DNA of 64,000 nt from Ostreococcus lucimarinus (Eukaryota). Positions 2,724 through 63,489 of this stretch are shown piece after piece (position 1 is the stretch's first letter; every line of letters begins with the position of its first letter). The notes under the pieces were generated by a model that worked only from the letters and a program-made list of their open reading frames with translations, did no database searches and was not told where the DNA came from. A program made the position numbers and the translations under genes. Location: NCBI GenBank assembly GCA_000092065.1, contig CP000584.1; one strand, 5' to 3'.

Positions 2724-3168
2724 ATGAGTGCCGAGGACGCCGTGAAGGCGATACGCATCAAAACCGGCTCCTTGCGGCGTCTGTTTAAAGAGCGCGCGAT
2801 GTACGCCGAGGAAGTTACGAGCGGCGAGGCGAAAGTCGCCGCGATGAAGCGCGAAAACGTCGACGACGGTGACATCAAGCAGCAGGTGCGCGCCCGAGCG
2901 CGAACGACGCGAGCAACGCGACCTCGATGCGTTTTCGTCGCTCACGGTGACTGACGCGCGATGCGGTCGACGCGCGGGGACGCAGGAGAACGTGCTCGAG
3001 GAGAGTGCCATGATGGTGCAAGACAACGCGACGCGCTTGCACGACGCGCTCGGGTCGTTGCAAGTCACCGTGGAGCATTTCGAGTCAGATGCGATGGTAG
3101 AGGCGAGTGAGGAATATGCGGCGGCGGTGGTGTTGTTGAAGGAGGTCGAGGACGCGCTGAGGAAATGA
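2724..3168 (+). CDS. TBCA: tubulin-folding cofactor A (TBCA); join(2724..2885,2986..3168)
   Basis: Exon 1 MSAEDAVKAIRIKTGSLRRLFKERAMYAEEV...DIKQQ matches the TBCA N-terminus (IKIKTGVVKRLVKE...). Exon 2 ENVLEESAMMVQDNATRLHDA...EEYAAAVVLLKEVEDALRK matches the TBCA C-terminus. Intron 2886..2985 has donor GTGCGC, a gactgac branch and acceptor cag, both phase 0. Confidence 0.8.
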
Positions 3169-4606: not shown

Positions 4607-4960
4607 CGCGCGCGGCGCGACGCACCGACGCGCGCGCGATGTGACGCGCGCGAGCGACGCGCGGGACTTCGCGACGCGATGCACCGACGGCGCGCGAGCA
4701 ACTGTCGCATCGTCGTCCCGGGCGCGGACGACGACGCGCGCGAACGCGACGCCGATGACGCCGGCGACGTCGGCGGCGGCGGCGGCGGCGCGCGCGGTGA
4801 GGGAGGCGAACACATGTGCGTGCGCGGGAGACGATGACTTTTCGAGACGACGACGACGACGACGACGGAAGAACGGCGGAAGCGCGCGCGAGAGACGAAC
4901 GACTGACCCAACGCGCGCGCGCGCGCGTCGTCGCGCAGCACGGGGTCGGGGACGCTCACG

Positions 4961-18307: not shown

Positions 18308-18773
18308 TTCGACCCTCTCTCGAGCGCGCGCGCCGAAAAAAACGCACCACCCTCAACGCGCTAGGTCAGCGCCGGTCGCCAATCGTCACTCCTCGGCGCG
18401 CGCTCGCGGGCCTCTCGGCCGTCGACGCGCTCGTCGCGCGCGCGGGCGGCGCGTGGGCGGCGGCGACGTCATGACCGACGTGTTCCCGCGCGCGCACGAC
18501 GCGCGCGGGAGCGAAAACGACGAGGTGCGACGCGGCGAGAGACGCGCGACGCGTGCGCGATGGCGATGGGAAAACGCGTCACGACGACGTTCGCGAGCGG
18601 TGAAGGGCGCGAAATGCGCGCGAACGCGCGGAAAACGCGCGAAAACGAAGAAGGGGGGACTCTCGCGCGATGCGCGCGCGACGGGGAGGCGGCGAGGCCG
18701 GCGCGCGGGCGCGACGTGGATTTTGAGTGAATGCGCGGACTGACGAACGCGCGCGAGCGAACAGGCGCCGGCG

Positions 18774-20417
18774 ATGCCGATGCCGAAGAGACGGATTCAA
18801 GCGCGCTACCGACGATCTGGCGCGTCTTTTTCGGTGCAAGATCGTGATTTAGTCGCGGCGCTGGAGAATATTAAGAATACGCGCGCGACCGCGTCGTACG
18901 GGAACGCGAACGCGTACTCGAGCGCGACGGCGAGCGGCGTGCACGCGGACGTGCCGACGGCGCTCGGGGTGTACGTCAAGGGCTTGGCGCATACCGTCGG
19001 GTTTAAGGATTCGCTGCAGAATGAACCGGATGCTGAAGAAGTGCCGGTGCCGGAGCAGCCGAAGACGCTGACGCTCGAGCACGTGTACGACGCGTTCACG
19101 GTGGAGACCATCCCGTCGCGAAGGCTGGTCGACGTGCACGCGCGCGCCGCGGAGCTCGTCGAAAAGCATTCTCTCGAGGAAAACTTTTGCATCGTCGACT
19201 TGGCCACGGTGAAGGCGCTTTACGATTACCACAAAGCGAAGCTTCCGCGTGTGCGGCCGCATTTCGCCGTCAAGTGCTTGCCCGACCGCGGCATCATCTC
19301 CACCCTCGCCGCGTTGGGCGCCGGTTTCGACTGCGCGTCTCAAGGCGAAGTTGAGTTGGTTACTGGTCTCGGTGTGCCTTCTGAACGCATTATCCTCGCA
19401 CACCCCGTGAAGCGGCCGTGCGATTTGCGCTGCATCGCCGAGTACGAGGTGCCGTACACCACCTTTGACTCTGTGTCCGAGTTGCACAAGATTCTCGCGT
19501 CCAAGGTCAAGGTGAAGCTCATCTTGCGAATTCGCGCTGATGATCCCATGGCGCGTCTTCCGCTCGGAGCCAAGTACGGCGCGCCACTTGACAAGGTCTC
19601 AGAGCTTCTTTCTGTCGCCGCGTTGCTCAACTTGGACGTCGCCGGCGTTTCGTTTCACGTCGGTTCTTCCTCGCGCAATCCGGACGCCTACCGCAACGCC
19701 ATTCAGTTTGCGAGGAAAATCTTCGACGAAGCGAAAGAGATAGGTTTCAACATGCACCTCTTGGATATCGGCGGTGGTTTCACCGGTTCGTTCGACGCCA
19801 ACGGCAACGTCACCGAAGCGCCATCCAACTTTGATCGCGTTCGAGACGCTCTCGATGAAATTTTTCCCGACGACGGAACGTTTGAAGGTTTGCAAATCAT
19901 CGACGAGCCCGGTCGCTACTTCGCGCAAGCTCCGGTCACGATGGCGTGCCTCGTATACGGTACGCGCGAAGGGACGAACGATGCAGGTGAGCGTCACATG
20001 GATTACTACATCACCGACGGCTTGTACGGCTCGTTCAACGGCATCATCTATGACGGTCTCGACTTGCCGACGTACTTCTTGCAACCGAACAAGGTTGCCC
20101 CGCTCGCTGGAATCGATAACGATTTCGACAAGATTAAGATTTCGTCCACCGTGTACGGGCCGACCTGCGATTCGCTCGATTGCGTCATGCGAAACATTCC
20201 TCTGCCGGAGCTGTCCAACGGTGACTGGCTCATGTTCCCAGATGCCGGAGCTTACACCATGGCTGGTGCGTGCGATTTCAACGGTATCCTGTGCTCGAAA
20301 TATCTTTGCTTCTACGTGAGTAGCGAAAAGATGACGAGCACGGCGACGGAGAAAGAGCTCTCAGATTTGGTTTACGCAAACGATCGACCGGCGTGCACGC
20401 TCGTTCAAAACCGCTGA
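18774..20417 (+). CDS. ODC: ornithine decarboxylase (PLP-dependent Orn/DAP/Arg decarboxylase family 2)
   Basis: HFAVKCLPDRGIISTLAALGAGFDCASQGE (PLP lysine motif), GGGF, and the GPTCDSLD substrate-Cys motif. Confidence 0.85.
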   Translation: MPMPKRRIQARYRRSGASFSVQDRDLVAALENIKNTRATASYGNANAYSSATASGVHADVPTALGVYVKGLAHTVGFKDSLQNEPDAEEVPVPEQPKTLTLEHVYDAFTVETIPSRRLVDVHARAAELVEKHSLEENFCIVDLATVKALYDYHKAKLPRVRPHFAVKCLPDRGIISTLAALGAGFDCASQGEVELVTGLGVPSERIILAHPVKRPCDLRCIAEYEVPYTTFDSVSELHKILASKVKVKLILRIRADDPMARLPLGAKYGAPLDKVSELLSVAALLNLDVAGVSFHVGSSSRNPDAYRNAIQFARKIFDEAKEIGFNMHLLDIGGGFTGSFDANGNVTEAPSNFDRVRDALDEIFPDDGTFEGLQIIDEPGRYFAQAPVTMACLVYGTREGTNDAGERHMDYYITDGLYGSFNGIIYDGLDLPTYFLQPNKVAPLAGIDNDFDKIKISSTVYGPTCDSLDCVMRNIPLPELSNGDWLMFPDAGAYTMAGACDFNGILCSKYLCFYVSSEKMTSTATEKELSDLVYANDRPACTLVQNR

Positions 20418-22001: not shown

Positions 22002-22170
22002 ATGTCCGCCGACACCGCGTCGCTCGTCGCGAACGCGCGGCAGCAGATCGCGCGCTTGCTGACGCAGCTCGCGGACCTGGAGGACGCGCGGGAGGTGCGC
22101 GCGACGGCGCGCGACGGCCGACGCGGCGACGACGGATGAATGCGTGGAACGACGATTGCGAATGGCTGAC

Positions 22171-22206
<36 letters not shown>

Positions 22207-22613
22207 AGGAGTTCGACGACGATGAGTACGCGGAGACGAAGGCGGCGACGCTGACGCAGCTGGACGCGTTCAAGACGTCGCTGCAGCGCATGACGACCGG
22301 GGACGTGACGCTCGAGGACGAGCTCGCGACGGTGAAGGCGGCGACGAAGGCGGCGATCGCGAGCGCGTTCAGGACGCCGGAGGTTTTGAAGATGTTCGCG
22401 CTGCGACAGCCGGACGAACTGCGAGAGCGGATGCAGCGAGCGGCGAGGGACGTGATGCTTGGGAAGATGAGCGCGGAGCGGGGTGAAGTGATACGGGTGG
22501 AGGCGCTGACGGCGCTGAAGAAACTGGGAAGCGAGTTGGAGGCGGAGGAATTGGAGTTTTTACGCGCGCACATGACGCGCGGGTTGACGGATTTCGTGGA
22601 CGCGGTGGAGTGA
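22002..22613 (+). CDS. LZIC: LZIC (leucine zipper and ICAT-homologous domain protein); join(22002..22094,22209..22613)
   Basis: Exon 1 MSADTASLVANARQQIARLLTQLADLEDARE. Exon 2 EFDDDEYAETKAATLTQLDAFKTSLQRMTTGDVTLEDEL...AFRTPEVLKMFALRQPDELRERMQRAARDVMLGKM...LKKLGSELEAEELEFLRAHM matches human LZIC ([37 protein letters not shown]...). Intron 22095..22208 has donor GTGCGC, a (GAC)n tract and a gactgac branch. Confidence 0.75.
22171..22205. repeat. (GAC)n microsatellite inside the LZIC intron
   Basis: gacgacgacgac... read directly. Confidence 0.8.
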
Positions 22614-29170: not shown

Positions 29171-30099
29171 CTATTGTTGCAAACCGAGCAACATGTTCGC
29201 GCCACCGCCCGGCAAGTACATGACGTTGCGGCTTCGCGCGAGCGTCTGCGCAATCTCCTTGCTCGCTTCGATTCGGCGCAGCTCGACGAGCGCTGGGCCG
29301 GCAGCCTTGGTCGCTTGCGAGATCAAACGCGCGGATTCGGATTCACCCTCGGCGCGAATAATCGCAGCCTCTCGCTCTTGCTCGGACCGCTTCACGACGT
29401 AGGCCGCGCGTTCCGCTTCCTGTTGACTCACTTGCTTTGCTTCGATCGCCTTGGTGTACTCGGAGGAGAAGCTCAAGTGCGTCAGCGCGACGTCGTCTAA
29501 GATGATGCCGAAATCAGCCGCTCGCAGTCGCAAAGCCTCGCTGACTCGCTGACTCACCAATTGACGCTGCGTCAGCAACTGATCCGCGTTGAACTGCGCC
29601 ACGGTCGCCTTCAAAACTTCGTTCCCGATCGACGGCAACACCCGATCATCGTAGTCTTGCCCGAGCTCTTGATGAATCTTCGGCAGCTTGTCCACGTCCG
29701 GTCTGCACAGCACCCGCAGCGTCAAGTTCACCTGCTGCAAATCCTTCGTCCCCGTCACCGACGTCAGCGACTTCGCTCGCGTGCGCACGTCGTAAATCGT
29801 CGGGTTCTGAATGAACGGCACCACGAAGTGCGTGCCCTCGCCCGACGTCACCGGAAGCACCCCTCTGAAGCGGTCGAACATGACCGCGCGTTCGCCCCCG
29901 TCCACTGCGTACGATTACGCCCCGCGCGCGCGTCTCGTCAGTCTTCGCGCGCCTTCGCGCCGCGCGGGCGGTCGTATCATTTACGCGCCGCGCGTCAATC
30001 GCCTTCGCGTCGCGTCGCGTCGCGTCGACGACGCGCGCTCGTCGACGATTCGCGTCACCAACCCTCGATCGAGGCGTCGTCGCGTGCGTTCGCCGTCGT

Positions 30100-30132
<33 letters not shown>

Positions 30133-30236
30133 CGTCGCGCACCGTCGTAGATGGCCTGCGACGCCACGGAGGCGCCGACGCCGATCGTCACCGCCGCGCG
30201 GGCGAGATTCGTGAGCGCGTTCGCGGCGGCGCTCAT
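29171..30236 (-). CDS. PHB: prohibitin; complement(join(29171..29904,30143..30236))
   Basis: Exon 2 DGGERAVMFDRFRGV...PGGGANMLLGLQQ is prohibitin. Exon 1 MSAAANALTNLARAAVTIGVGASVASQAIYD supplies the TM anchor. The intron is phase 1 with donor GTGCGC, a (GCGTC)n tract, a gactgac branch and acceptor cag. The junction reads ...AIYDVDGGERAVMF, cf. ALYNVDAGHRAVIF. Confidence 0.85.
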
Positions 30237-30549: not shown

Positions 30550-32783
30550 TTACTTTTCGCCCTCCTTCTTTTCCTCGGAGACGGTCTCGCCTTCGTACGT
30601 GTTCCCCTCGGATGCGGCGCCCGAGGCGGCACCGCCGGCGTTAAGCGCCTCGCCGATCTTCATCACGGCTTGTTGGAGACCATTGATCGCTTCGCGGAGC
30701 TTGGCGAGGTCTTCGCCCTCGGCCGCGGAGCGCACCTCGGCTTGAGCGTTGGTGATGGCGTCCTTGACGTCTTGCGGCAACTTGTCGCCGTGCTCGCTCA
30801 AGTTCTTATCGGCGCTGTAAACCAACGTATCAGCCTCGTTTCTCACTTCAATGAGTTCCTTTCTCTGCTTGTCGGACTCAGCGTGCGACTCCGCGTCGCG
30901 AACCATTTGCTCGATGTCCGCGTCGGACAAACCGCCAGAGGACTGAATGGTGACCTTTTGTTCCTTATTCGTAGCCTTGTCCTTGGCGCTCACGTTCACG
31001 ATGCCGTTGGCGTCGATGTCGAACGTGACTTCAATTTGCGGGACGCCGCGCGGCGCGGGCGGGATGCCGACGAGGTCGAACTGGCCGAGTGTCTTGTTAT
31101 CCGCCGCCATCTCTCGCTCGCCTTGCAACACCTTGATGCCGACTTGAGTTTGGTTGTCAGCAGCGGTGGAGAACGTTTGACTCTTCTTCGTCGGAATCGT
31201 GGTGTTACGGCTGATCAAGCGCGTGAACACACCACCCAAGGTTTCGATGCCGAGAGAGAGCGGGGTGACGTCCAAGAGCAAAATGTCCTTGACGTCGCCG
31301 CGAAGGACGCCCCCTTGGATGGCGGCGCCCATGGCGACGACTTCATCCGGGTTCACCCCCTTGCTCGGGTCGCGGCCGAAGAGATCTTTGACGATACCTT
31401 GCACCTTGGGCATGCGAGACATACCACCGACGAGCAACACTTCGGAGATTTCACCCGTGCTCACACCCGCATCCTTCAAGCAGTTCTTGCACGGTTGCTT
31501 GGTGCGCTCGAGAAGACTACCCACGAGCTCTTCGAGCTTGGCGCGCGAGAGCGTCATCGCCATGTGCTTCGGGCCCGACGCATCGGCAGTGATGAACGGC
31601 AAGTTGATGTCCGTGCTTTGCGCGGAAGACAACTCAATCTTCGCCTTTTCAGCGGCTTCGCGGAGACGCTGCACGGCGAGCTTGTCTTGCTTGAGGTCGA
31701 TGCCTTGGTCCTTCTTGAAGTTATCAACGAAATGGTCCAACAATACGGTGTCGAAATCTTCCCCACCCAAGAACGTATCACCATTCGTGGCCTTGACTTC
31801 GAACACACCGCCGGAAATCTCGAGGATGGAGACGTCGAAGGTACCGCCACCCAAATCGTAGACGGCGACGAGGCCCTCCTTCTTGTCGACGCCGTACGAA
31901 AGCGCGGCAGCAGTAGGCTCGTTGATGATGCGAAGAACGTCGAGACCGGCAATCTTACCCGCATCCTTCGTCGCCTGTCTTTGAGCATCGTTGAAATACG
32001 CCGGCACGGTGACGACGGCTTGCGACACGCCGTGTCCCAAGTACGCCTCCGCCGTTTCCTTCATCTTTTGCAACACGAAGGCGCCCACCTGGGAGGGAGA
32101 ATATTGCTTCCCACCGGCGGCAACCCAGGCGTCGCCGTTCGACGCCTTGACAATTTCATACGGCACGAGCTTGGCTTCCTTTTGCGTGTGCTCGTCCTCG
32201 AACGTGCGCCCAATGAGACGCTTCGTCGCGTACAAGGTATTCGTCGGGTTCGTCACCGCCTGCCGCTTCGCCGGCTGCCCGACCAAACGCTCCCCCTTAT
32301 CCGTGAACGCCACCATCGACGGCGTCGTTCGCGCGCCCTCGGCGTTCTCGATCACGCGCGCATTCTTTCCCTCCATCACCGCCACACACGAGTTCGTCGT
32401 TCCGAGATCGATCCCGATGACGTCGCCGCCCTTCGCGTACCCGCGCGTAAACGCCGCCGACGCCGCTCTCGCGTTCAACCATCCACCCTCGGGCGCGATC
32501 GCGTCTCGCGCCGCATATCTCTGTCGATAAAGAAAAATCACGCGATCGCGCGTCGTTCATCGTCAGTCCCGCGTCCATCGCCGCGTCTCTCGTCCCGCGT
32601 CGCCGTCGTCCCGAACCTCTCCCGCGCGCGTCCCGACCGCGCGCGTCGAGACCCCCCCCCCGCCGTCCTCCCCGCGCCCGTTCGCCCGTTCGCGTCGCGT
32701 CGATTCGCGCGTCGCGCGCGCCGACGCACGTGCACCGCGCTTCTCGTCGCCCGCGCCGCGCTCTCGCGCAAAAACCGCCGCAT
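30550..32783 (-). CDS. mitochondrial HSP70 (DnaK-type, mortalin/HSC70-9-like); complement(join(30550..32520,32730..32783))
   Basis: [37 protein letters not shown] is diagnostic of mitochondrial HSP70. The presequence exon [18 protein letters not shown] joins to [13 protein letters not shown]...[17 protein letters not shown]. The intron has donor GTGCGT, a gactgac branch and a pyrimidine tract before cag. Confidence 0.85.
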
Positions 32784-44957: not shown

Positions 44958-47642
44958 CTAGTCAACTCGCGAAATTGTCGCCATTTCGTTCATTACCTGG
45001 CCGTTCTCGACCCATGATAACTTCAGACGGAGCGCTATCGGCTTGCCTTCGTGTCCCGCCGCCGCCGAGACGAGCATGTTTTGCGTCACCGGCGCGCTCG
45101 ATGATATCGTCGACCCACTCGCCGCTTGCATGCTAAGAGTCATGGTTTTAGGAACCGCTGCGTGTAGAGAAAAGTTTTCGATATCAGCTGGACCCGCGTT
45201 AACGTAGCGAGCGCTCACGAGCGTCTTGCTTTGGTCGAGCTGATTCGGCTTTGACGCCGACAAGAAGATTGACAAAGAACCTTTCGCGTACGCCGGTTGC
45301 GGTGCTGTCGGAGGCGTGGGGGCCGTAGGCGCACCCAGCGCATCGATCAAGGATCCGGTAGAGGACGAAGAAACCACCGGGACATCGTCTGACATTAGAT
45401 CCATCAAGCCCGCGACGGCAGCCGGATGTGCCGCGTCCATGTTAGCAAACGGATCCGTCGTGGGCACTGGCGAAGACGACGACATCAGATCGCCGAGAAC
45501 ATCAACACGTGCCGAAGTAATAGTATGTGACACCGATGCCGAGCTCATATCGGTGCTACCGAAAAGATCAGCCAACGCGTCCGGCGCCGACGCCTTCGGT
45601 GGCGCGCTCGCCGGTATCGCTACGTCGGCTAGCATGTCACCGAGTAAATCCATCGCCTGACTTTGTTTCGCAGGCGTCACCGGCGCCGACGTCGGCGCAT
45701 CTGCCGAACTAGGGCTGAGTAAATCGTTCAACAAGTCGGCGCCGCTAGTTTGCGCCTGCGACGAGTCACCTTCATCGAAATTCAACAAGTCGCCAAAGCT
45801 TCTCGCCGGTCGAGCCGCGTCCGCAGCCTTTTTCTGAGCTAGAGTTTCCATGGTATCCGCAGCGACGAATTTCGGTGCCTCGGGAGGTGGCATGTGCTCG
45901 AAGAGCATATCCCGGAGATCTGGCATCTTTTCAAACATCGATTTGTACTCGTGCGCGCGCTTTTGCGTTTCGAGCTCGAGTGTTGTCTCATACTTGGCCA
46001 AGACGGGTATGATGACGGCTTGTTCGCTCGGTTCGCGCACCGCAATCTTGGCAAGCGCCGTCATGACTAACGGTCTCAACATCAGGTACTTTTCCTCGCT
46101 CAGAATCGCGATCATAAGCTTCGTGACATCGTTATGCTTCACCTTGGTCAATACTTCGTCCTCGACGGACGGCGCGTGCACCATCGCGTCTGAGTATTCC
46201 CCGCACACCCACACCGCGACTGCGCACAAACGCACGGGAGCATAATCGTCGCACGCCGCGCGATACAATGAACGCGCAGCGTAGCCGTGAAGCTGAGGCG
46301 TCCGCGCGACGAGCCCCATGAAATCGTTGCACTCGAGCTCGTCAATGTACTGCCCAGCGCGAATGAGGAGGGCGATGAACGTGTCAATGTACCACTGCTT
46401 ACTCGGCGAAAACTTCAATGCCAAGGAGGATATTTTCTTTGCCAACTCACACTTGAACTCCTCATCGCACACCTCCAAGTACTCGAGCAACTCATGTGAC
46501 AGCGTGGTGACGTTCTTGGCGTTCACCAAGCCGTACACTAATTGCAGCGCGCTTCGCCGAATGGTGATGTCCGCGTCTTTCACGCAATTCACGATGATAG
46601 CGCGGTGACGTTGGATGGCTTGCATGTCCACCTCGACAACTTTCGCGAGCGTATTCAGCGCGACGTAACGTATGTTGTTATCCTTGTTCTGTAAAAACCT
46701 GCCCAGAATGTTCACCGCCAGCACGCGCAAACCACCCACGGCCTCGATGGCGATGATGGTCTCGACAGCCTCGTACAGAATAGCGTTCCCGGCATTCTTC
46801 GCGCCATCCGTGTTCGACGCGATCTGCGCCAATATGTCGCTCATCGCATCGCTCGCGTCCGCGTCGCCTCGACCGAGCACGCGAAGCAATCGTAAAATCG
46901 CCACTTGCAAAAACGGATCCGCGTGACCGGCGATGTCGTGCTCAACACTCTTCCCCGCGTAAATCAACGACTTCAAAACCTTGCACAACTGCGGCACCTG
47001 CGCTCGCATTCTCTGCCGCACGTCGTCATCGTCTTCACACATCTCCGTCGCCAGCGTACACGCCGCCAGCAGCACCCCGTGATGCCTATCGCTCAACAAC
47101 TTTTCCGCCGCCGGCACGAACCCCTCCGTCAACTCTGGCACTTTTTTAATCACCCTCGTCGCCGTCAGCGCCGCCTTCTTCCTCACGTACGAATTCCCGT
47201 GTCCCATCAACTGCTCAACCTCCCCCGCCACGTCCCTCGCCATCTCCGCGCTGCATATGCTCCCCAACATGCACAACCCGAGTCCCACCACGTAGTGATT
47301 CTTATGACTCAAGTCGTTCTTCACGCTATTCGTCACCAGCATCGTCACCTCCTGGTCCTCGTCCAGCAGCAGCATCAGCCCCAGGTACCCGATCCGTTTC
47401 TCCGGGAACCCGTTCCTCGCCGTCAATCGCACGCACTCCATCTGCCCGAAGTGCGTCGCGTGTCCGAGCATGTGCACGAACATCAGCTTCGCGACGTTTC
47501 TCGGGACGAATCGCGCCTCGTCGGGGTTCCTGAACGACTCCCGAATCGCGCTCGACTCGCGCGCGATCACCGCGCGCTCCTCCGCCGCGGTCTTGCACTC
47601 GCGCACCTTGCGGATGAGGTCCCGCAGGCGCAGCGTCGACAT
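44958..47642 (-). CDS. AP-1 complex gamma-adaptin (with C-terminal GAE ear)
   Basis: N-terminus MSTLRLRDLIRKVRECKTAAEERAVIARESSAIRESF...NVAKLMFVHMLGHATHFGQMECVRLTA matches gamma-adaptin [38 protein letters not shown]... Confidence 0.85.
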   Translation of the reverse strand: MSTLRLRDLIRKVRECKTAAEERAVIARESSAIRESFRNPDEARFVPRNVAKLMFVHMLGHATHFGQMECVRLTARNGFPEKRIGYLGLMLLLDEDQEVTMLVTNSVKNDLSHKNHYVVGLGLCMLGSICSAEMARDVAGEVEQLMGHGNSYVRKKAALTATRVIKKVPELTEGFVPAAEKLLSDRHHGVLLAACTLATEMCEDDDDVRQRMRAQVPQLCKVLKSLIYAGKSVEHDIAGHADPFLQVAILRLLRVLGRGDADASDAMSDILAQIASNTDGAKNAGNAILYEAVETIIAIEAVGGLRVLAVNILGRFLQNKDNNIRYVALNTLAKVVEVDMQAIQRHRAIIVNCVKDADITIRRSALQLVYGLVNAKNVTTLSHELLEYLEVCDEEFKCELAKKISSLALKFSPSKQWYIDTFIALLIRAGQYIDELECNDFMGLVARTPQLHGYAARSLYRAACDDYAPVRLCAVAVWVCGEYSDAMVHAPSVEDEVLTKVKHNDVTKLMIAILSEEKYLMLRPLVMTALAKIAVREPSEQAVIIPVLAKYETTLELETQKRAHEYKSMFEKMPDLRDMLFEHMPPPEAPKFVAADTMETLAQKKAADAARPARSFGDLLNFDEGDSSQAQTSGADLLNDLLSPSSADAPTSAPVTPAKQSQAMDLLGDMLADVAIPASAPPKASAPDALADLFGSTDMSSASVSHTITSARVDVLGDLMSSSSPVPTTDPFANMDAAHPAAVAGLMDLMSDDVPVVSSSSTGSLIDALGAPTAPTPPTAPQPAYAKGSLSIFLSASKPNQLDQSKTLVSARYVNAGPADIENFSLHAAVPKTMTLSMQAASGSTISSSAPVTQNMLVSAAAGHEGKPIALRLKLSWVENGQVMNEMATISRVD

Positions 47643-49170: not shown

Positions 49171-50433
49171 ATGTACCCCGTCAAACTCAACGCGCTCCAC
49201 AACTTCCTACGATTCTCGTGCGCCACCTTCACCACGAACGTCCCCGCGAACGCCTCCCCCGCGCCCGCGCGCTCGCCGCCGACGAATTCCACCTCGAACC
49301 CGCCGTCGATCGCCCCGTGCGCCCGTCGCACCGCCGCGCGCACCATCGACTCCAAGCCCGCGCGCGACCACTTCCACGTCGCGTCTCGCGTGATCCTGCG
49401 CGTCGTTCGCGCGCGCGTCGTCGTCGTCAGTCTTCCAGTCTTCGTCCTCCCGCGCGCCTCGCGAGCGCCGACGCGTCCGTTCGCCGTCGCGCGCGCGCCT
49501 CGCCTCGCCTCGCCGACGCACAGTCGTATCCTCACGTACGCCCACCGCGCGCGCGGGAGCTCGAACGTGCGCTGCGCGACGTCGCTATCCATCGCGCGCG
49601 CTCGCGTGACGCCGCACTCCATGCCGACGCCCGCGCTCGCGCGCCTCGCGCTCGCGCGCCCGCGCGCGGACGTCCGCGCGGCGCGCGCGCGCGCGCGCGC
49701 CAACGTCAACGCCGACCTCGCGGACGTCGAGCGCGACGCGCGGAACGCCGGGCGCGCGCTCGTGCGCGTCTCGCGCGCGTTCGCCGTCGACCTCGGCGAC
49801 GCCGCGCGCGACGGCGCGCGCACCGCGCGCGAGTACGTCGCGCTGCCGGCGACGGAGTACAATCTCATCGACCCGGAGAACGTGTCGCGCGCGAGCGACG
49901 ACGCGAACGGGTTCGTCGTGAGCGCGGGGAGGCAAAAGCTGCTGTTTCTGGACGTCGAGCCGCGCGGGACGGTGCGCGTCGACGCGAGCGAGGAGGGATG
50001 CGTGCAGTCGCTCGTGGACGCGGTGATCGTGAATCGTAACCCGGACGACGCGAAGGCGACGAAAATAATCGACGCGATCAACGCGAGCCTGAAGGACCTG
50101 CGGTTGAGGAACGAGGTGACGGCGACGCGCTGCGAGGACACGGGGCGGGCGAGCATACGATGCCAAATCGACGTGTGGGGGGACTTTCGAGAGGGCGTGT
50201 TCGCGCGCGCGGGAACGCGGTTGAACACGATCTTAGGATGGAGCTTGGGGGCGGTGATGCCGTGGTTTTTGACGCAGCTCGCGGCGGATTACGCGAGATG
50301 GGCGCGCGACGAGCCGCGGACGACGGCGGAGAACGCGTCCCTGGCGAGCGTGGCGGGGAAAATCATCGCGGGGAGTCGAGGGAAGCTTCCCGAGGGCGTG
50401 CGCGAGTGCGAGTGCGTTGAAATAGTGCGATAA
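49171..50433 (+). CDS. conserved hypothetical protein (plastid-targeted; DUF-type)
   Basis: ATG at 49171. The plus frame has strong GC3 bias from the first codons (atg tac ccc gtc aaa ctc aac gcg ctc cac aac ttc...), which rejects the overlapping minus ORF 49095..50228. Confidence 0.55.
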   Translation: MYPVKLNALHNFLRFSCATFTTNVPANASPAPARSPPTNSTSNPPSIAPCARRTAARTIDSKPARDHFHVASRVILRVVRARVVVVSLPVFVLPRASRAPTRPFAVARAPRLASPTHSRILTYAHRARGSSNVRCATSLSIARARVTPHSMPTPALARLALARPRADVRAARARARANVNADLADVERDARNAGRALVRVSRAFAVDLGDAARDGARTAREYVALPATEYNLIDPENVSRASDDANGFVVSAGRQKLLFLDVEPRGTVRVDASEEGCVQSLVDAVIVNRNPDDAKATKIIDAINASLKDLRLRNEVTATRCEDTGRASIRCQIDVWGDFREGVFARAGTRLNTILGWSLGAVMPWFLTQLAADYARWARDEPRTTAENASLASVAGKIIAGSRGKLPEGVRECECVEIVR

Positions 50434-50990: not shown

Positions 50991-51697
50991 CGATCTCCGA
51001 GCGCGCGCGTGTGCCGACGCGGCGACGCGCGATGATGATATGATGGCGTTCGCGCGCGTATTATATGAACGACCCCCGTTTCGCTTGAGTCGCGAACCGT
51101 CGCAGCGAATCCGACGGATGGTCGATCCCGCGACGACGCGCGCGACACAACACGACGACGCCATGAACGCGATCACGCAAACCATCGCCAGCTCGGCCGT
51201 CCGCGTCAACGCGACGTCCGCGAACGCCAAGCGCGTCAACCGGTGCGTCGGCGACGCGAACGCGACGACGAACGCGCGATGACGCGCGCGACGCGACGAC
51301 GCGAGCGATCGCGCGATCGCGCGCGCGCGCGCGGAGATGGACGCGCGCGCGCGAGTTCTGGGCGTGGAAACGCGCGCGCGCGTGGATGAATTTGCGTCGC
51401 GTCGAACGACGCGCGCGAAGGCGAGGGAGACGGGATCGGAGACGGCGCGGGCGTCGAACGTCGATGGGGGCGCGGTGAAGCCCTATCCACTGGATAAACC
51501 GACGCGCGCGGCGGTTCGCGCGGCGAACGGGGCGTTCGTGGACGAAGGTTCGGGCGAGGATGGGTGATTCATCGCGGGCGAGGGATAGCGCGCGAGCGAG
51601 CGCGGACGTGGGATGAGGACTGACGTGATGACGCGGGTGATTTTCGAAACGCAGCGCGACGCGACTCTCCGCGACGCGCGCCGTCGCCGGCGTCCCG

Positions 51698-52015
51698 GTG
51701 AAGAGGTGCGCGGAGGCGATTTTCGCGAACGCGCGCGGTGTCGTCGTCTTTCGTGTGCGAAGTGGGATAACGCCTGAACGCAGACTGACGTTTGATTATT
51801 TTTTCGTACGACGCAGCGCCCGTGTCGCGCCGCGCAAGTCCGTCCGCGGCGGCGCCGCCGTGACCAAGGCTTCCATGGTTGAGGTTGCGCAAATCGCCAA
51901 CCAGGGTGCGGAGATTGCGTCTATCGCCACGACGTGCTTCATCATCACCCTCATCGGTCTCGCCTTCGGTTTTGTGCTCCTTCGCGTCGAGGACTCCGTC
52001 GTGAACGGCGAATAA
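51698..52015 (+). CDS. PETM: cytochrome b6f subunit PetM (nuclear-encoded precursor); 5' exon(s) and start unresolved, terminal exon begins at 51817
   Basis: C-terminus ...IASIATTCFIITLIGLAFGFVLLRVEDSVVNGE matches Chlamydomonas PetM TALTMVGMTLVGLAIGFVLLRVESLVEEGKI. The upstream gactgac branch, ttttttcgtacgacgcag tract and acceptor at 51815-51816 imply a spliced phase-2 exon. No in-frame ATG was found. Confidence 0.55.
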   Translation: MKRCAEAIFANARGVVVFRVRSGITPERRLTFDYFFVRRSARVAPRKSVRGGAAVTKASMVEVAQIANQGAEIASIATTCFIITLIGLAFGFVLLRVEDSVVNGE

Positions 52016-52273: not shown

Positions 52274-52832
52274 ATGGAGTCCGTGTGGTGCCACGACTGC
52301 GCTCGGCGCGTGCACGTCGCCGCCGCGGCGCTGGATCAGGGCTCGCGAGACGCCAAGTGCCCGTCCTGCGACGGCATCTTTCTCGAGCGCGCCGAGTCGT
52401 CGTCCGCTGCCGCGCCCGCGCGCGGTCAAAGGACGGGCATCTCCGTCGTCTTCGGTCCCGCGTTCGTCGCGCACGGCGACGGCGCGTTCGGCGACTTTGA
52501 CTTCACGCAGTTGGACACGCGAAACTTCGACGCGCCGTGCGACGCGCGCGCGGTGGAGGCGCTTCCGGAGCGCGCGTGGGACGGCGGCGACGAGAAGACG
52601 TGCTCGGTGTGCCTCAGCGAGTTCGCGCGCGGCGATCGCGTGAAAACGATACCGAAGTGCTCGCATGAGTTTCATTTGAATTGTTTGACGGAGTGGTTGA
52701 AACTGGTGCGTGCGCGACGACGCGCGAGGATGAACGGATGGCGCGGACTGACGACGAATATAGCGCGATACGTGTCCGGTGTGCAGATGCAAGGTGTGCG
52801 ACGATGGCGTGGCGACGACGACGACGGCGTGA
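52274..52832 (+). CDS. BCA2/RNF126-type E3 ubiquitin ligase (N-terminal zinc ribbon plus RING-H2); join(52274..52705,52764..52832)
   Basis: WCHDCARRVH...CPSCDGIFLE is a BCA2 zinc finger. CSVCLSEFARGDRVKTIPKCSHEFHLNCLTEWLKL is a RING-H2 lacking its last Cys pair. Splicing a 58-nt intron (donor GTGCGT at 52706, gactgac branch, acceptor at 52762-52763) restores ...RDTCPVCRCKVC. Confidence 0.7.
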
Positions 52833-53048: not shown

Positions 53049-53738
53049 TTACTTGCCTTCCTTGGCGGCTTGGAGCTTGAGCACTTTCTGTTTCGAGGAA
53101 AATCGCGTTCGTCGCGTGGGTTAGTCGCCGCGCTCGTCGTCGTCGCTTCACATCGCCTTTACACGCGCACAAACCGCTCGCAATGCGACGCACCTTGACA
53201 ATCTTTTGCTCCTCGACGAGGAACGCGCGCACGATGCGCTCACGAACCGCGCCAGCGGACAAGACGCCGCCGTACGCGCGCGTCACGCTCTTCTTGTTCT
53301 TGGACATGTGCTTGCGGCTATACTTTTGCGTCGCCACGCGCGGAACCTATCGATCGCGGACCATCAACGCGCGTCAACGTCAGTCAAAATGCTCTTCACC
53401 GCACGCGTCCTCCCTCGCGCGCGTTTGCGTCGCGCGCGCGTCGCGTCGACGACATCGATCGCGACGAAAGCCCTAGCGCGTCGACACCGATCGACATCGC
53501 CGCGCCCTCGCGCGCCTCTTCGCGCGCTCCCGCGCCCGCGCCCGCGAATCGACGACGAGTAATTATCCACACGCACCCCGTGAATGCGACCGGCATCACC
53601 AGCCGGCGTTTGCGCGCCCTTGGTCGTCTTCTTGACGTAGGCGATGCCCAAAGACCCGCCGGGCAATCGCTTCTTGACGATCTTGTTCGAGCGCGTGTTG
53701 TACGCGTGGCGTCGCTTGTACGTGATACGGGGCGCCAT
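53049..53738 (-). CDS. RPL34: 60S ribosomal protein L34e (eL34), 117 aa; complement(join(53049..53087,53194..53346,53577..53738))
   Basis: Exon 1 [54 protein letters not shown]. Exon 2 [51 protein letters not shown]. Exon 3 [12 protein letters not shown]. The whole is collinear with human RPL34 at the same length. Both donors are GTGCGT, branches are gactgac and gactaac, all junctions phase 0. Confidence 0.85.
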
Positions 53739-53952: not shown

Positions 53953-55440
53953 TCACGGAAACCCTAAATCGCTCTCTTCATGGTCGTCGTCGTGGACGTA
54001 ACGCGATGGATGCGACGGGCGGCGCCAGAGCTTGATTTCGTTGAGCGTCGCGGTGAGCGCGGCTTCGGCGGTGAAACGCACGGCGGTGACGGGCGAGGTG
54101 TGGAGCTTGTGGGTCATGATAGGGACGAGACGTTCAACCTCGTCGCGATGGGCGGACTGAACGATGTTAGCGTCGGGGCCGACGAAAGAGGGCGCGCGAC
54201 GAGACGCGCGCGCGGCGCCGACGGAGAGTCGCGAGGCTTGGTCCGCGAGCGTGGCGGTGTTCGAGTCGCGCGCCGCGGTTTCGCCGAAGTCGTCGTCTTC
54301 GGGGAAATGCCAGTCCCAGAACGCCACTCGACAGTCCTCGCCCACGGAGGCGATTCGAAGGAAGCGATGACCTTCGCCGGCGGCGCGCTCGTCCACGGCG
54401 ACGTCGGTGATCCAGCTGCGATGGCCGCCGCACCCCCACGCGACGACTTCTCGCTCGTACAACCCCCATATTTCGAGCATATCGCTCTCACCACCAGCTA
54501 TGACGTACCGACCGCACGGGCTCCAAGTCACGGCGTTGAAACCGGCGTAGTAGGACTTGAAGCCGGCGACGATGTTCGGCCTGTCGAGCTCGACGTCCAA
54601 CACGCGACACATCCCCGCCCCATTCACGACGACTAAATAACGACAATCGGGAGAAAATGCCGCGGCATTCAGCGTATGTCGTCCGAAATGCCATCGCGCG
54701 CTCGGATTCGACCCGGGAACTTGCGACGCGGCGACGCTCAGCGCCGACGCGTCCGCCAACGCCTCAAACTTTGCCGCGACGACATCCTTCGACGAATCGT
54801 ACGTGTACATGCTCCCATCGGCGTGCAACGACACGAAATCGAACCCCGTCGCGAGGTTCTCCTTATCGTCCCCTCTCGTTCGCCACCGCACGCACGTCGT
54901 CCTCGACGCGTTCACCCCGTCGCCGTCCGCGTTCCATCGCGTCGTCGTCGCCGTCGCCCGCTTCGCCTTCTCCCCCAACCATCTCCCCAAATCCACCCCA
55001 CACACCTCCCCGTTCGCCAATCCGACGAGCAAATCGCATCGTTCGCCCTCCTCTTTCGCCCTCCACGCCAGCGACGTCACGCACGCGCCTCCGAACGTCA
55101 CGCTCGCCGCCGTCTTCGCGTCGTTCGCCTCGTCCAACGCCATCGCGCGCACCCCCTCTCCCGCGTTCACCAGCGCGTACCGCCGCCCCTCCACCGTCGC
55201 CACCTCCACGCGCTGTCGATTTCTCGCGTCGTACGCCTCGCGCGCGCCCGCGCCTCGCGCGCGCGCCCCCGCGCGTCGCAGCGACACCGCGCGCTCCAGG
55301 TTGTACCGCCCCTCGGGCGTCTTGAAGCAATCGCGCGCGTCGCCGCGCTCGCGCGCGCGGTCGAGCGACGTCGACGCGCGCGTCGCGTCGTCGAGCGACG
55401 CGCGCGCGCGCGACGGCGCGTCGAGCGACGCGCGCGGCAT
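53953..55440 (-). CDS. WD40-repeat protein (family uncertain)
   Basis: WD repeats in the C-terminal ~330 aa (LVVVNGAGMCRVLDV...GHRSWITDVAV...VGEDCRVAFWDW). Start set at the ATG at 55440..55438. The 5' ~1.2 kb of the 885-aa track ORF is R-rich junk. Confidence 0.55.
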   Translation of the reverse strand: MPRASLDAPSRARASLDDATRASTSLDRARERGDARDCFKTPEGRYNLERAVSLRRAGARARGAGAREAYDARNRQRVEVATVEGRRYALVNAGEGVRAMALDEANDAKTAASVTFGGACVTSLAWRAKEEGERCDLLVGLANGEVCGVDLGRWLGEKAKRATATTTRWNADGDGVNASRTTCVRWRTRGDDKENLATGFDFVSLHADGSMYTYDSSKDVVAAKFEALADASALSVAASQVPGSNPSARWHFGRHTLNAAAFSPDCRYLVVVNGAGMCRVLDVELDRPNIVAGFKSYYAGFNAVTWSPCGRYVIAGGESDMLEIWGLYEREVVAWGCGGHRSWITDVAVDERAAGEGHRFLRIASVGEDCRVAFWDWHFPEDDDFGETAARDSNTATLADQASRLSVGAARASRRAPSFVGPDANIVQSAHRDEVERLVPIMTHKLHTSPVTAVRFTAEAALTATLNEIKLWRRPSHPSRYVHDDDHEESDLGFP

Positions 55441-59211: not shown

Positions 59212-59702
59212 TCACGGCGCGCTCGGCGCCGTCGCGGAGTCGATGGCCGACTTCGCCGCTTTCAAACGCTCCTTCAACTCCAACGCGAACACGCTCTTTA
59301 AATCTTGATCGCGCGTGCGCAAGATGTACTCGTCCAACCCGCCGGCTTTGTCCATGCAGCGGAGCGCGTGCGCGGTGACGCGCATCGGGATCATCTCCTC
59401 CAGGAGTTCGCTGTACACTCGCTTCTTTTGCGCGTTCGGAAGCCATCGACGGCGAGTTCTGCGCGCGCGAAAATGCGACACGAATCGTTAGTCGATGACC
59501 GGCGGCGCGGCGGCGCGCCGAGACCGTGCGTCGGGGCGGTGAGATCGCTCGAACGCGACGCGAACACGCACTTGTTGCCCCCGTCCTCGCTCACGTTGTT
59601 GCCGAATTTGATGTGTTTACCCGCGAACAGACCGCGGCGCGCCTTGCCTTGCACCACGCGCGCGAGGGCGCGTCGCACGGCGGGCGCGAGCTCGGTGGAC
59701 AT
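59212..59702 (-). CDS. mitochondrial ribosomal protein bL28m; complement(join(59212..59458,59572..59702))
   Basis: Exon 1 MSTELAPAVRRALARVVQGKARRGLFAGKHIKFGNNVSEDGGN(K). Exon 2 (K)TRRRWLPNAQKKRVYSELLEEMIPMRVTAHALRCMDKAGGLDEYILR. Matches Arabidopsis bL28m RAKRGLYAGRHIQYGNRVSEDGGNKSRRCWKPNVQEKR...THALRCIDKAGGIDEYLL. The intron is phase 2 with donor GTGCGT, a gactaac branch and acceptor cag. Confidence 0.8.
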
Positions 59703-59873: not shown

Positions 59874-61991
59874 TTAGCCGTCGTAGCTATCGCACGGCGA
59901 GTCGGGGACGCGACCGTGTCTGAACTTGCACGCGTCGCCGTTCCAGCAGTTGCCACGATCGAAGTGTTTGCAATACACCGGCCCTCGGCGCGGCGGATCG
60001 GGTTTCCTCGCGAAGAGCTCAATGCGCTTCCGCTTTAAACTCTGCTGCTGATGCTGTACGTTTTGTAAACGCTGTTGAATTTGCCGTCCGACGACGTCAC
60101 CGTATCTCGCGCCGTTGTTCATCGCCCCGACGTGTGTCTCTGTCGATGAACGACTCACGACTTCGCCCTCTTCGCCGGGCACCCAAAGCTTTTCTAACGG
60201 ATGCGACACACCGGCGTTTTTGTACTGGAACCCGAGCGCGCGTGCGCACCCTTCTGGTGGTGGCGGTGGAACTTCCGTGGCTTGTGTAATTTGCGCTTTC
60301 ATGATTCGGACATCTCCTTGATTCTCACCCTTAGCCATGGACGTCGGAGGCGGAGGAACGTCGACCATCTGCGCATACGCACGCTCTACGGGGGCCAACG
60401 AAGCGAGAGGATGAGGTGCTTGCTGCGGCGTATTCTTCGCATCTTTCTTCGCCTGCACCGCTGCTTTGTGCATCTTCGAAGTCTGATGCTGCGCCCAGAC
60501 GTTCGCCAAGGACGTAGGCGTAGGCGCATGGACGGTGTGATCGCAAATCTTGCACCGCTTTGAATGTTTGAAATCCTTGGTAGTTTCAGCTTTCAGCTGA
60601 GTTTTCGTCTTCTTCACTTGCACTTTTTCTCCGAGTCTTTCGAAAACAGAAGACGCCGGTGGAACTGGAAGTGACGGTATTGGCGACGACGACAACGATT
60701 GCAAGAGCGCGTGACTCTGCGGTGCGTTGTCTTCTTCCCACTTAATGTGTTGCTCCGCACCCTCGAGTGCAGCGTTCGCTTCTTGCCTCGTGATGCTGGC
60801 GTGAAACGGAATTCCGGCCCGATTTAATCGCGCTATTTGCTCTGTAGTGGCGCGCTGGACAAAAAGAACATCGTTCGCGCTTGGAGCGAGCGCGTGACCG
60901 TGGATCTTCATGAACTGGATGCTCGTCGGCAGCGCGACTTCGACTGGATTTGAGAGCACTTCGCGAATCTTTGTCACCTTATCTGACGACATCGAACCGT
61001 AGGCCGCGATGACGAGCGCTGGAAATAACTTGACTCGCTTCACCAAAGTATCCAAAGCGCAGTCCTTGGACGTTCGATTTTTGAAGAAGTCGCGCGCCTC
61101 CTTTTGTAGTGACGACGGAATCGCCTTGGCTATGAAAGAATCGACCGAATGTTGCTCAAAGAGCGCCTGCGAAAACGCGCGCAACACGCGCCACAAATAT
61201 TGCGCGTCTGTCGTCTTTTCGTCATGCGACATTTCCGTGAGCTGGTCGCTCGCAAAAGCGTCCAGTGCGTGCATCGGACCGCCCAAGTACTGCGAGTGCA
61301 TCGTCACCTTGGTGTCCGCTTCGGTGACGTTGAGCAAAGCCTGCGCCACGTCCTTGCAGCGCGTCGCCTTGTCATCCCACGCACTACCCGCTTTGCTCGA
61401 CGCCGCGCCTCGGGTGCGATCCAACGTGAGCTTCAAAGCGTTCAAAGATGTGATCGCATTGCGACCGTCGCTCTTATTCATCGCCTCGGGCACGCTCTCG
61501 GCGAGCGCGTTCGCCGCGTCTTCGATCGCGCGCACCGTCGACTCCGGCAAGTTCTTCGACATGTCATCGCGAACACCAACGCGCTGCGTCAGATGTCGCG
61601 TATATCGCATCAGTTTTTCGTACGGCGACTCCGCCGGAATGCGCATCTCCGACGGCAATCGATCGTGCGCGTCTCGCACGAGCTCCACCGCGTTCGCGAC
61701 CTCCGCGTCTCGCGTCCGCCCAGATCTCTTACACGCCCGAAACGCATTCGCCACCGCGTGCAGCGCGTCTTGAAATCTCTGTTGTCCCTCCCTGTCCGCC
61801 ACGCGCGTCGTCACGCGCGCGTCGTGCCCGCTCTGCAAACCTCGCGAGAGCGTGTTCGCGAACGCCGCGTCCTCGTCATCCTCCTCCGCCGCCGCCGCCG
61901 CCGCCGCGCGTCGCTTCTTCGCCGTCGGCGTCGCGCGCGCGCCGTCCGCGCGCGCGTCGTCCTCGTCGTCCGAGCTCTCCGCCGCGGGCAT
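59874..61991 (-). CDS. NYN/limkain-b1-type domain protein with C-terminal CCCH zinc finger (RNA-binding/RNase-like)
   Basis: MKIHGHALAPSANDVLFVQRATTEQIARLNRAGIPF is NYN-like. CKHFDRGNCWNGDACKFRHG is a C-x7-C-x5-C-x3-H finger. Acidic N-terminus. Confidence 0.55.
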   Translation of the reverse strand: MPAAESSDDEDDARADGARATPTAKKRRAAAAAAAEEDDEDAAFANTLSRGLQSGHDARVTTRVADREGQQRFQDALHAVANAFRACKRSGRTRDAEVANAVELVRDAHDRLPSEMRIPAESPYEKLMRYTRHLTQRVGVRDDMSKNLPESTVRAIEDAANALAESVPEAMNKSDGRNAITSLNALKLTLDRTRGAASSKAGSAWDDKATRCKDVAQALLNVTEADTKVTMHSQYLGGPMHALDAFASDQLTEMSHDEKTTDAQYLWRVLRAFSQALFEQHSVDSFIAKAIPSSLQKEARDFFKNRTSKDCALDTLVKRVKLFPALVIAAYGSMSSDKVTKIREVLSNPVEVALPTSIQFMKIHGHALAPSANDVLFVQRATTEQIARLNRAGIPFHASITRQEANAALEGAEQHIKWEEDNAPQSHALLQSLSSSPIPSLPVPPASSVFERLGEKVQVKKTKTQLKAETTKDFKHSKRCKICDHTVHAPTPTSLANVWAQHQTSKMHKAAVQAKKDAKNTPQQAPHPLASLAPVERAYAQMVDVPPPPTSMAKGENQGDVRIMKAQITQATEVPPPPPEGCARALGFQYKNAGVSHPLEKLWVPGEEGEVVSRSSTETHVGAMNNGARYGDVVGRQIQQRLQNVQHQQQSLKRKRIELFARKPDPPRRGPVYCKHFDRGNCWNGDACKFRHGRVPDSPCDSYDG

Positions 61992-62529: not shown

Positions 62530-63150
62530 GCGGACATGCTGACGCGGGACGACAGCGCGAAGGCGCGACGCGGCGACGATTTCGGAAAGGGCGCGACGCC
62601 GCGGTGCGTGACGGGGTTCGGCGCGAGCGATGGATCGACGACGACGTCGGCGCGATCGACGCCGTCGACGAGCCCGCCGTCGGTGACCGTGGGGGCGTCG
62701 ACGAGCCCGCGACGGGCGCTGCTCGCCGAGGCGCTGCGATCGCGGGCGCGCGATGGCGCGGACGGGGGAACGACGCGCGACGCGCGCGCGCGACGGTCGC
62801 CGAGCGAGGACAGCGAGTATTCGTGCGATGAGAATTTCGTTTTAAAGAGTGCGGGCGGTGGTGTGGATGTCGGCGCGCGCGCGCGCGTTGGGAGCGGGCG
62901 AGACGTCGATGCCGACGTGGCGGTGCGCGAGGCGAGGGACTCGGACGAGGGGGGCTTCGCGTGCGAGTCGCGCGCGGCGTCGACGCCGATCGACATCCCG
63001 CGCGGGAGCGATGGAATGTTACACTGGAAAACATGCGTTCAAACGCGCGAGCGAGCGACGCGGGCCGATGCGCGACGCGCGCGAGGCGACGCGCGAGCGA
63101 GCCCGCCCGTTTTCGGGTGTTCTGACCTAACGACTGACGATCTGGTGTGA
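62530..63150 (+). CDS. possible small hypothetical gene (weak)
   Basis: ATG ORF with fairly high GC3 in a low-complexity GC-rich region. A branch-like cctaacgactgac and a ccag acceptor-like site lie just 3' of it. Confidence 0.2.
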   Translation, partial: ADMLTRDDSAKARRGDDFGKGATPRCVTGFGASDGSTTTSARSTPSTSPPSVTVGASTSPRRALLAEALRSRARDGADGGTTRDARARRSPSEDSEYSCDENFVLKSAGGGVDVGARARVGSGRDVDADVAVREARDSDEGGFACESRAASTPIDIPRGSDGMLHWKTCVQTRERATRADARRARGDARASPPVFGCSDLTTDDLV

Positions 63151-63489
63151 TTCGACCGAATCCAGGCGCCGAAGACGACCGCTCGAACAGCCGCACGTGG
63201 CTTGACGAAGCGCGAACGAAGCGCGATCAAAGAAACTGATGATGACGACGACGTGTACTTTTTTATGATTCTTCGAATGATGCGCCCGAGACGTCGCGGG
63301 CGGTTTTGCACGCAATAAGGCTTCGAGTCCGCTCCTTCGCGTAATACGCGAAGGAACGATGGAACGCGACGCCTCGTGATTATTTTTTGCCGGTTTAGCT
63401 GGCCCAAGCCATATGTATATTCTGCGCCTCAATATCACTCCTTTCGCGCCGAGCAGTGCTGGCACTTGTGTCGATGTAAACTAACATGT

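Follow-up and report, generated by a model that had tools for sequence, protein, structure and literature searches.

Shared splice signals of spliceosomal introns in a 64-kb window of the Ostreococcus lucimarinus genome

Described intron classes and the introns of the window

The splice grammar of the introns found outside chromosome 2 in the alga Ostreococcus lucimarinus has been known since 2008, and the present analysis of a stretch of 64,000 nucleotides (nt) from contig CP000584.1 of that organism (hereafter the window), centered on the three-exon gene of ribosomal protein RPL34 (eL34), is a correct rediscovery of it. In a set of 319 non-chromosome-2 introns confirmed by expressed sequence tags (ESTs), the donor was GTGCGTG (4.8 bits), ACTGAC occurred in 87%, ACTRAC in 90% and GACTGACG in 66.5% of the introns, the distance from branch to AG peaked at 20–35 nt and the acceptor preference was CGCAG (Irimia and Roy, 2008; PMC2483917). 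The introns of the window come from the same organism, share the donor consensus GTGCGTG, the branch ACTGAC/GACTGACG, the spacing and the preference for a CGCAG acceptor, and are members of this published set. The comparison showed nothing substantive to separate the two: ACT[GA]AC is present in 11 of 11 window introns, two of them with ACTAAC, versus 90% genome-wide. A preliminary description of this DNA, made from its letters alone, had called the grammar strict; this held for all 11 introns of the window, but strictness is not absolute, given the published ACTRAC value of about 90% among EST-confirmed, non-chromosome-2 introns.

Two further classes are described in the same algal order. The canonical introns of Micromonas possess the donor AG|GTGCGT and the branch NCTGAC, both similar to those of the window, but the Micromonas branch lies 43–52 nt upstream of the acceptor, compared to approximately 30 nt in the window (Verhelst, 2013; PMC3879977). 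Moreover, the orthologue of RPL34 intron 1 in a Micromonas-like contig uses GTAAGT and CTGAC, unlike the window introns. The introns of Ostreococcus chromosome 2 (BOC1 introns; Verhelst et al., 2013) reside in the same genome and are apparently processed by the same spliceosome; however, they are numerous, measure 40–65 nt, have weak GTRNGT donors and lack a common branch motif, and the window introns are unlike them in both length and signals. The G+C content of the window is approximately 63% and stays between 0.59 and 0.67 throughout, which is the normal nuclear composition and not that of the low-G+C half of chromosome 2. The window is part of a normal nuclear chromosome of O. lucimarinus CCE9901.

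Outside the algae, the introns of Saccharomyces cerevisiae offer a parallel in that donor and branch are near-invariant, introns are few per gene, apparently biased toward the 5' end and frequent in ribosomal protein genes, and dependence on a pyrimidine tract is weak. Uniform splice signals are the usual correlate of intron poverty in the literature. Many of the intron-containing genes of yeast encode ribosomal proteins, and intron retention in highly expressed O. lucimarinus genes has been compared with yeast (Lanier et al., 2008). The label "yeast-like" in the preliminary description is apt for the strictness of the signals but not for their sequence, since the donor is GUGCGY and not GUAUGU, the branch is mostly ACUGAC and not UACUAAC, and the branch-to-AG spacing is tighter in the window. 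The lineages being unrelated, the likeness is a product of convergence.

Spliced junctions and their signals

The introns of the window are almost certainly ordinary U2-type GT-AG spliceosomal introns of the class already described for O. lucimarinus as canonical and non-chromosome-2. They are spliced at exactly the junctions given in Table 1, tend to sit close to the 5' ends of short genes, and have in common GTGCG[CT], GACT[GA]AC(G) and splicing to the first AG that follows at about 30 nt. The supported set comprises 11 introns, namely the eight named in the preliminary description and three absent from its list, which are the two introns of PetM and one in a gene of the Pop5/Rpp14 family.

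Evidence at the RNA level was sought with a 40-base probe (20 + 20 nt) for each junction, which had to occur verbatim in transcript-like contigs from independent public runs; the contigs were retrieved from public assemblies by queries with the spliced proteins and were then aligned to the window. Exact junction 40-mers were found for eight of the 11 introns in a total of 20 contigs, and six of the eight junctions proposed earlier for confirmation by spliced reads were among them. Identity to the window was approximately 94–100%, the low values being confined to short 5' segments and all other pieces reaching at least 97.5%, and the alignment gaps coincided exactly with the predicted introns. 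Because these gaps are precise GT-AG excisions across many independent runs, we infer that the contigs derive from RNA.

The RPL34 gene had been proposed to reassemble from three exons into exactly 117 amino acids (aa), and translation of the joined exons (354 nt) bore this out. The product is identical to XP_001417580.1, covers positions 1–94 of the 94 in Pfam L34e, and is colinear through both junctions with residues 1–115 of the plant eL34 of a solved ribosome (8azw_T). The position of intron 1 is common to other Ostreococcus clades and the Micromonas-like contig. The invariant parts of this intron in an alignment of eight relatives were limited to GT..GT in the donor, the AG and a single internal motif, while the branch ACT[GA]AC was kept in the six Ostreococcus sequences of that alignment. 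The orthologous donors are GTACGT in other Ostreococcus clades and GTAAGT in the Micromonas-like contig; the donor takes the form GTGCG in O. lucimarinus. Intron 2 has no counterpart in several Ostreococcus clades, some of which possess instead an additional intron around codon 10 (presence and absence were read from contigs L017, L019–L022, L027 and L043). The bL28m intron is likewise missing in one clade (L026, region 2161–2496), and introns come and go between the clades, as seen with the bL28m intron and RPL34 intron 2.

Public annotation agreed with most of the other gene models. Five of the seven rebuilt proteins (RPL34, prohibitin, mitochondrial HSP70, bL28m and RING) were identical to GenBank entries of O. 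lucimarinus CCE9901 in an exact look-up, the RING protein being 166 aa from the ATG at 52274 (XP_001417334.1). The spliced Pop5 product, which carries Pfam Rpp14/Pop5, was matched in the same way (XP_001417578.1), and the junction of LZIC, a sixth rebuilt gene, agrees with a partial public model (XP_001417325.1). The TBCA model covers positions 2–97 of the 99 in Pfam TBCA over its junction and aligns ungapped to human TBCA (1h7c_A) across residues 54/55. Exact look-up in the public protein collection returned no entry for TBCA with three alternative starts, a 165-aa LZIC model, a two-exon 92-aa PetM or two MAP-kinase-kinase models.

The two-exon PetM was displaced, on the evidence of relatives and of the spliced contig L089, by a three-exon gene encoding 109 aa in which both introns obey the rule. 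A short exon equivalent to PetM exon 2 is found in all relatives examined, and the Pfam PetM domain lies in exon 3. The acceptor that had been predicted for the terminal exon at 51815–51816 is correct, forming the end of intron 2. The range of intron length given earlier, 58–238 nt, applies to the eight listed introns but fails as a general range because PetM intron 1 measures 412 nt; a limit of 60–300 nt, as proposed for a genome-wide scan, would miss this intron, as would our own first grammar scan.

Table 1. Positions of the supported introns, the exons and the associated elements in the window, with predicted branch contexts and the contigs that carry each junction 40-mer.
Feature	Position	Strand	Length (nt)	Donor	Branch context	Branch A to AG (nt)	Acceptor	Exons, product and remarks	Contigs
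TBCA intron	2886..2985	+	100	GTGCGCG	GTGACTGACGC	31	CAG	Coding sequence (CDS) 2724-2885, 2986-3168	
LZIC/ICAT-domain intron	22095..22208	+	114					CDS 22002-22094, 22209-22613; junction of XP_001417325.1; Pfam ICAT	
Prohibitin intron	29905..30142	-	238					CDS 30236-30143, 29904-29171; 275 aa, identical to XP_001417571.1	L093-L095
Mitochondrial HSP70 intron	32521..32729	-	209					CDS 32783-32730, 32520-30550; 674 aa, identical to XP_001417572.1	L096-L100
Pop5/Rpp14-family intron	49396..49521	-	126	GTGCGTC	AGACTGACGA	31	CAG	CDS 49592-49522, 49395-49095	
PetM intron 1	51243..51654	+	412	GTGCGTC	GGACTGACGT	31	CAG	Exon 1 51163-51242	L089
GAAGCCCTATC	51476-51486	+						In PetM intron 1; common to the four Ostreococcus clades examined	
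PetM exon 2	51655..51705	+	51					No open reading frame (ORF) signature	L089
PetM intron 2	51706..51816	+	111	GTGCGCG	AGACTGACGT	28	CAG	Exon 3 51817-52015	L089
RING-H2 ligase intron	52706..52763	+	58			12		CDS 52274-52705, 52764-52832	L088-L092
RPL34 exon 3	53049..53087	-						12 codons + TAA; translation, contig alignment	
RPL34 intron 2	53088..53193	-	106	GTGCGTC	GCGACTAACCC, A at 53121	33	CAG		L081, L088, L090, L091
RPL34 exon 2	53194..53346	-						51 codons; translation, contig alignment	
RPL34 intron 1	53347..53576	-	230	GTGCGTG	TTGACTGACGT, A at 53380	33	TAG		L081
Telo-box-like element TAGGGCTT	53468..53475	-						Within RPL34 intron 1	
RPL34 (eL34) exon 1	53577..53738	-						ATG at 53738; 54 codons; contig L081 matches 53767-53575 at 100%	
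Canonical telo-box 8-mer AAACCCTA	53959-53966							TAGGGTTT on the RPL34 sense strand; only one in the window	
bL28m intron	59459..59571	-	113					CDS 59702-59572, 59458-59212; 125 aa, identical to XP_001417584.1	L082-L087 (six contigs)

All 11 introns begin with GT and end with AG, and each carries a GTGCG[CT] donor (three GTGCGTG, four GTGCGTC and four GTGCGCG). When the eight listed introns were extracted, their donors (three GTGCGCG, two GTGCGTC, three GTGCGTG), their branch contexts, letter for letter, and their CAG or TAG acceptors were as the preliminary description had them. Every supported intron has exactly one branch motif, which is ACTGAC in nine cases and ACTAAC in two, with a G before the hexamer in all 11 and after it in 10. 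The distance from branch to AG is 28–35 nt in nine of the 11, the outliers being RING at 12 nt and HSP70 at 42 nt; among the eight listed introns, it runs from 12 to 42 nt, measured from the branch A to the G of AG, and is 29–35 nt in six. In none of the 11 is a non-GAG AG skipped; the first one past the branch serves as the acceptor.

The claim that a pyrimidine-rich stretch follows each branch did not hold. Pyrimidines make up a fraction of 0.25–0.62 of the stretch from branch to AG, and a run of at least four T is present in only five of the 11 introns; TBCA, LZIC, prohibitin, Pop5 and RING show fractions of 0.25–0.38 and no T run. The tiny first exon, also claimed, is not general: the coding part of exon 1 measures 54–162 nt in eight of the nine genes, where the first intron lies at 3–47% of the CDS, but the intron of the RING gene lies at 86%, near the 3' end; the sample is small.

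From established spliceosome biology, the GUGCGY 5' end would be read by U1 and afterwards by U6, and GACUGACG would pair with the branch-recognition sequence of U2, leaving the second A bulged as the nucleophile. For the 3' splice site, the choice would then fall on the first usable AG at a fixed distance past the branch. Since the pyrimidine tract is often missing, recognition would have to rest mainly on branch sequence and spacing, and it would be the branch sequence that supplies most of the information for the 3' site, as it does in yeast.

For gene finding in the Mamiellales, it would be advisable to anchor on GACT[GA]ACG together with the first AG that follows at about 30 nt, and to allow introns of more than 300 nt; the donor should not be used as the anchor because it is uninformative in this G+C-rich DNA. 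It is worth noting that, in an alga with few introns, a reading of the raw sequence without tools arrived at correct gene models, among their details an exon of 51 nt and a predicted acceptor.

Evidence for and against the U2-type reading

Several points weigh against the assignment to ordinary U2-type introns and their splicing at these junctions. The RNA origin of the transcript-like contigs is itself a deduction, and no transcript was obtained for the TBCA, LZIC and Pop5 junctions, which rest on homology and annotation only (the look-up of a Pop5 transcript in public assemblies gave no record). Several of the contigs fuse neighboring genes, and L081 is chimeric, its RPL34 complementary DNA being preceded, at positions 1–694, by a Nextera-type adapter, GATGTGTATAAGAGACAG, and by a Cys-rich repeat ORF that is unrelated. 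The branch adenosines are predicted from the ACT[GA]AC motif. Splicing of RPL34 is incomplete in part of the RNA: intron 1 is retained in some of it because L088 and L091 run unspliced through or into this intron (L088 spans all of it, L091 ends inside at 53547), with intron 2 spliced in both. Finally, the rule is not fully specific, as it also yielded two clear false positives and three candidates in the window. We counted no evidence that contradicts the U2-type assignment.

The alternative that survives best, although we consider it very improbable, is that the donor, with its +3G and +4C, is served by a spliceosome that has co-evolved with it or by a second one, either through a modified U1 or through U12-type machinery. 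GUGCGU mismatches canonical U1 at +4, and the possibility was raised by Irimia and Roy (2008; PMC2483917). However, each of five Mamiellales species has one U1 candidate with a standard pairing region at its 5' end (preprint, 2022; 10.1101/2022.06.08.495308), and the +4C would therefore be tolerated as a mismatch and not compensated. The U12 consensus (RTATCCTT donor, TCCTTAAC branch) was found in none of the introns. An Rfam scan of the window gave no match, hence no small nuclear RNA (snRNA) or small nucleolar RNA (snoRNA) gene to inspect.

Slighter still is the chance that the introns are copies of a mobile family of introner elements. Micromonas genomes hold such elements, and those of the IE-C class carry the extended branch motif GACTGACG. 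An all-against-all BLASTN of the 11 introns, however, produced short low-complexity CG-rich matches only; the bodies share no sequence, and no intron is a copy of another. In addition, the positions of RPL34 intron 1 and of the PetM introns are common across genera, and these introns are therefore old and not recent insertions.

The contribution of chance was evaluated against 100 dinucleotide shuffles of the window using a combined rule (donor GTGCG[CT], branch ACT[AG]AC within 300 nt and YAG within 8–45 nt). On both strands, neither GTGCG[CT] (213 observed, 231–233 in shuffles) nor ACT[AG]AC (23 observed, 27.5 expected) is enriched by itself, and CGCAG is depleted relative to the shuffles. 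In contrast, the combined rule matched 19 times, compared to 6.4 ± 3.1 in the shuffles with a maximum of 16. It is the combination and position of the motifs, and not the motifs taken separately, that are enriched. Eleven of the 23 branch hexamers fall in the 11 supported introns, which amount to 1,817 nt or approximately 1.4% of the sequence searched on both strands; 16 of the 23 have a preceding G, and none of the seven lacking it falls in a supported intron or in a candidate of the grammar scan. That the motif combinations are a product of chance in G+C-rich DNA and the introns mere modeling artefacts, a notion to which the very common and unenriched donor and the matches of the rule to the non-introns 7072–7372 and 45951–46085 lend some color, is refuted by the spliced products that equal annotated proteins with full-length domain matches and by the eight junctions found as exact 40-mers in independent transcript-like contigs, with the combined rule beating all 100 shuffles as well, and has next to no probability left.

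A telo-box-like element and further sites

In plants, the telo-box AAACCCTAA occurs in promoters, 5' untranslated regions (UTRs) and first introns of genes for the translation apparatus. Within RPL34 intron 1, which is otherwise unalignable, TAGGGCTT is the sole invariant internal block of the eight-sequence alignment. It is present in every Ostreococcus clade, in the Micromonas-like contig and in one further relative (contigs L026, L028, L017/L019–L022, L027, L039–L041, L043 and L062). In four Ostreococcus clades, no more than two copies of TAGGGCTT each were found in 11–16 kb, one in RPL34 intron 1 and one in PetM intron 1. Mamiellophyceae relatives whose first RPL34 intron follows codon ~9 carry TAGGGTTT, the canonical telo-box core, in that intron (L010, L013), and in Bathycoccus AGGGGCTTTT is found in place of TAGGGTTT. 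The likeness to the plant telo-box consists of TAGGG[C/T]TT in the first RPL34 intron across the class Mamiellophyceae; Ostreococcus and Micromonas differ from plants in having the one-base variant TAGGGCTT. The RPL34 element looks like a telo-box-type element kept in a first intron. The intron that holds it is the one retained in part of the RNA. A snoRNA inside RPL34 intron 1 was also entertained and dropped, since no conserved C or D boxes were seen on reading the orthologous introns. The canonical 8-mer AAACCCTA lies approximately 190 nt upstream of the 5' end of the RPL34 mRNA (53767, from L081), just inside the 3' end of the upstream ORF (53953).

The body of PetM intron 1 is otherwise divergent and measures 400–500 nt among the clades that share GAAGCCCTATC; outside the genus, only CTATCC remains of this block (L043, L013). 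GAAGCCCTATC and the RPL34 element have AAGCCCTA in common, in opposite orientation relative to transcription, and the PetM block may be a different site, of the GGATAG / MYB type, rather than the RPL34 element. It is conceivable, though we hold it somewhat short of probable, that the first introns of RPL34 and PetM have been kept, in a genome poor in introns, for the promoter-proximal regulatory elements inside them. If this were true, the link between the plant telo-box and ribosomal protein genes would extend to the base of the green lineage. A full-text literature search, with matches judged by title and abstract opening, found no report of a telo-box in these algae, and among the matches listed for the 8-mer AAGCCCTA/TAGGGCTT none looked relevant by title.

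Among the remaining matches to the rule, the 301 nt at 7072–7372 were rejected as an intron because they lie within a conserved 714-aa ORF that is continuous in relatives, and 45951–46085 was rejected because it is antisense inside the Adaptin_N coding sequence of an adaptin gene. A full match at 18553–18764 (+), with GTGCGCG, GGACTGACGA, 21 nt and CAG, stops 9 nt short of the start codon of the ornithine decarboxylase gene (18774–20417, product identical to XP_001417323.1) and would be a candidate 5'-UTR intron. Another complete set of donor, branch and acceptor, at 4816–4938, occupies most of a 147-nt gap (4814–4960) between divergent genes, namely the start of a minus-strand TPT-family transporter (ATG ~4813, a prokaryote-style call) and a kinase ORF (ATG 4961); this is either a candidate 5'-UTR intron or a chance match. 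Look-up of the kinase ORF returned genomic contigs only, at approximately 99.8% identity and presumably of the same species, and these are uninformative on 4816–4938. The third candidate is at 62923–63165.

Two minor observations concern the public records. One of the six bL28m contigs (L085, metatranscriptome-type) lacks 150 nt, ~60055–60204 (-), in a 705-aa ORF upstream of bL28m, where the five others are continuous. An intron was rejected here, as a GCATC direct repeat stands at the flanks and there is no GT-AG solution; the gap is an in-frame deletion variant (indel) or a reverse-transcriptase template switch. Furthermore, MDA9599443.1 (P0052), deposited as "hypothetical protein [bacterium]" on a contig of 925,621 bp, clusters at 90% identity with the Ostreococcus RING protein, and an Ostreococcus chromosome thus seems to have been deposited within a bacterial metagenome bin.

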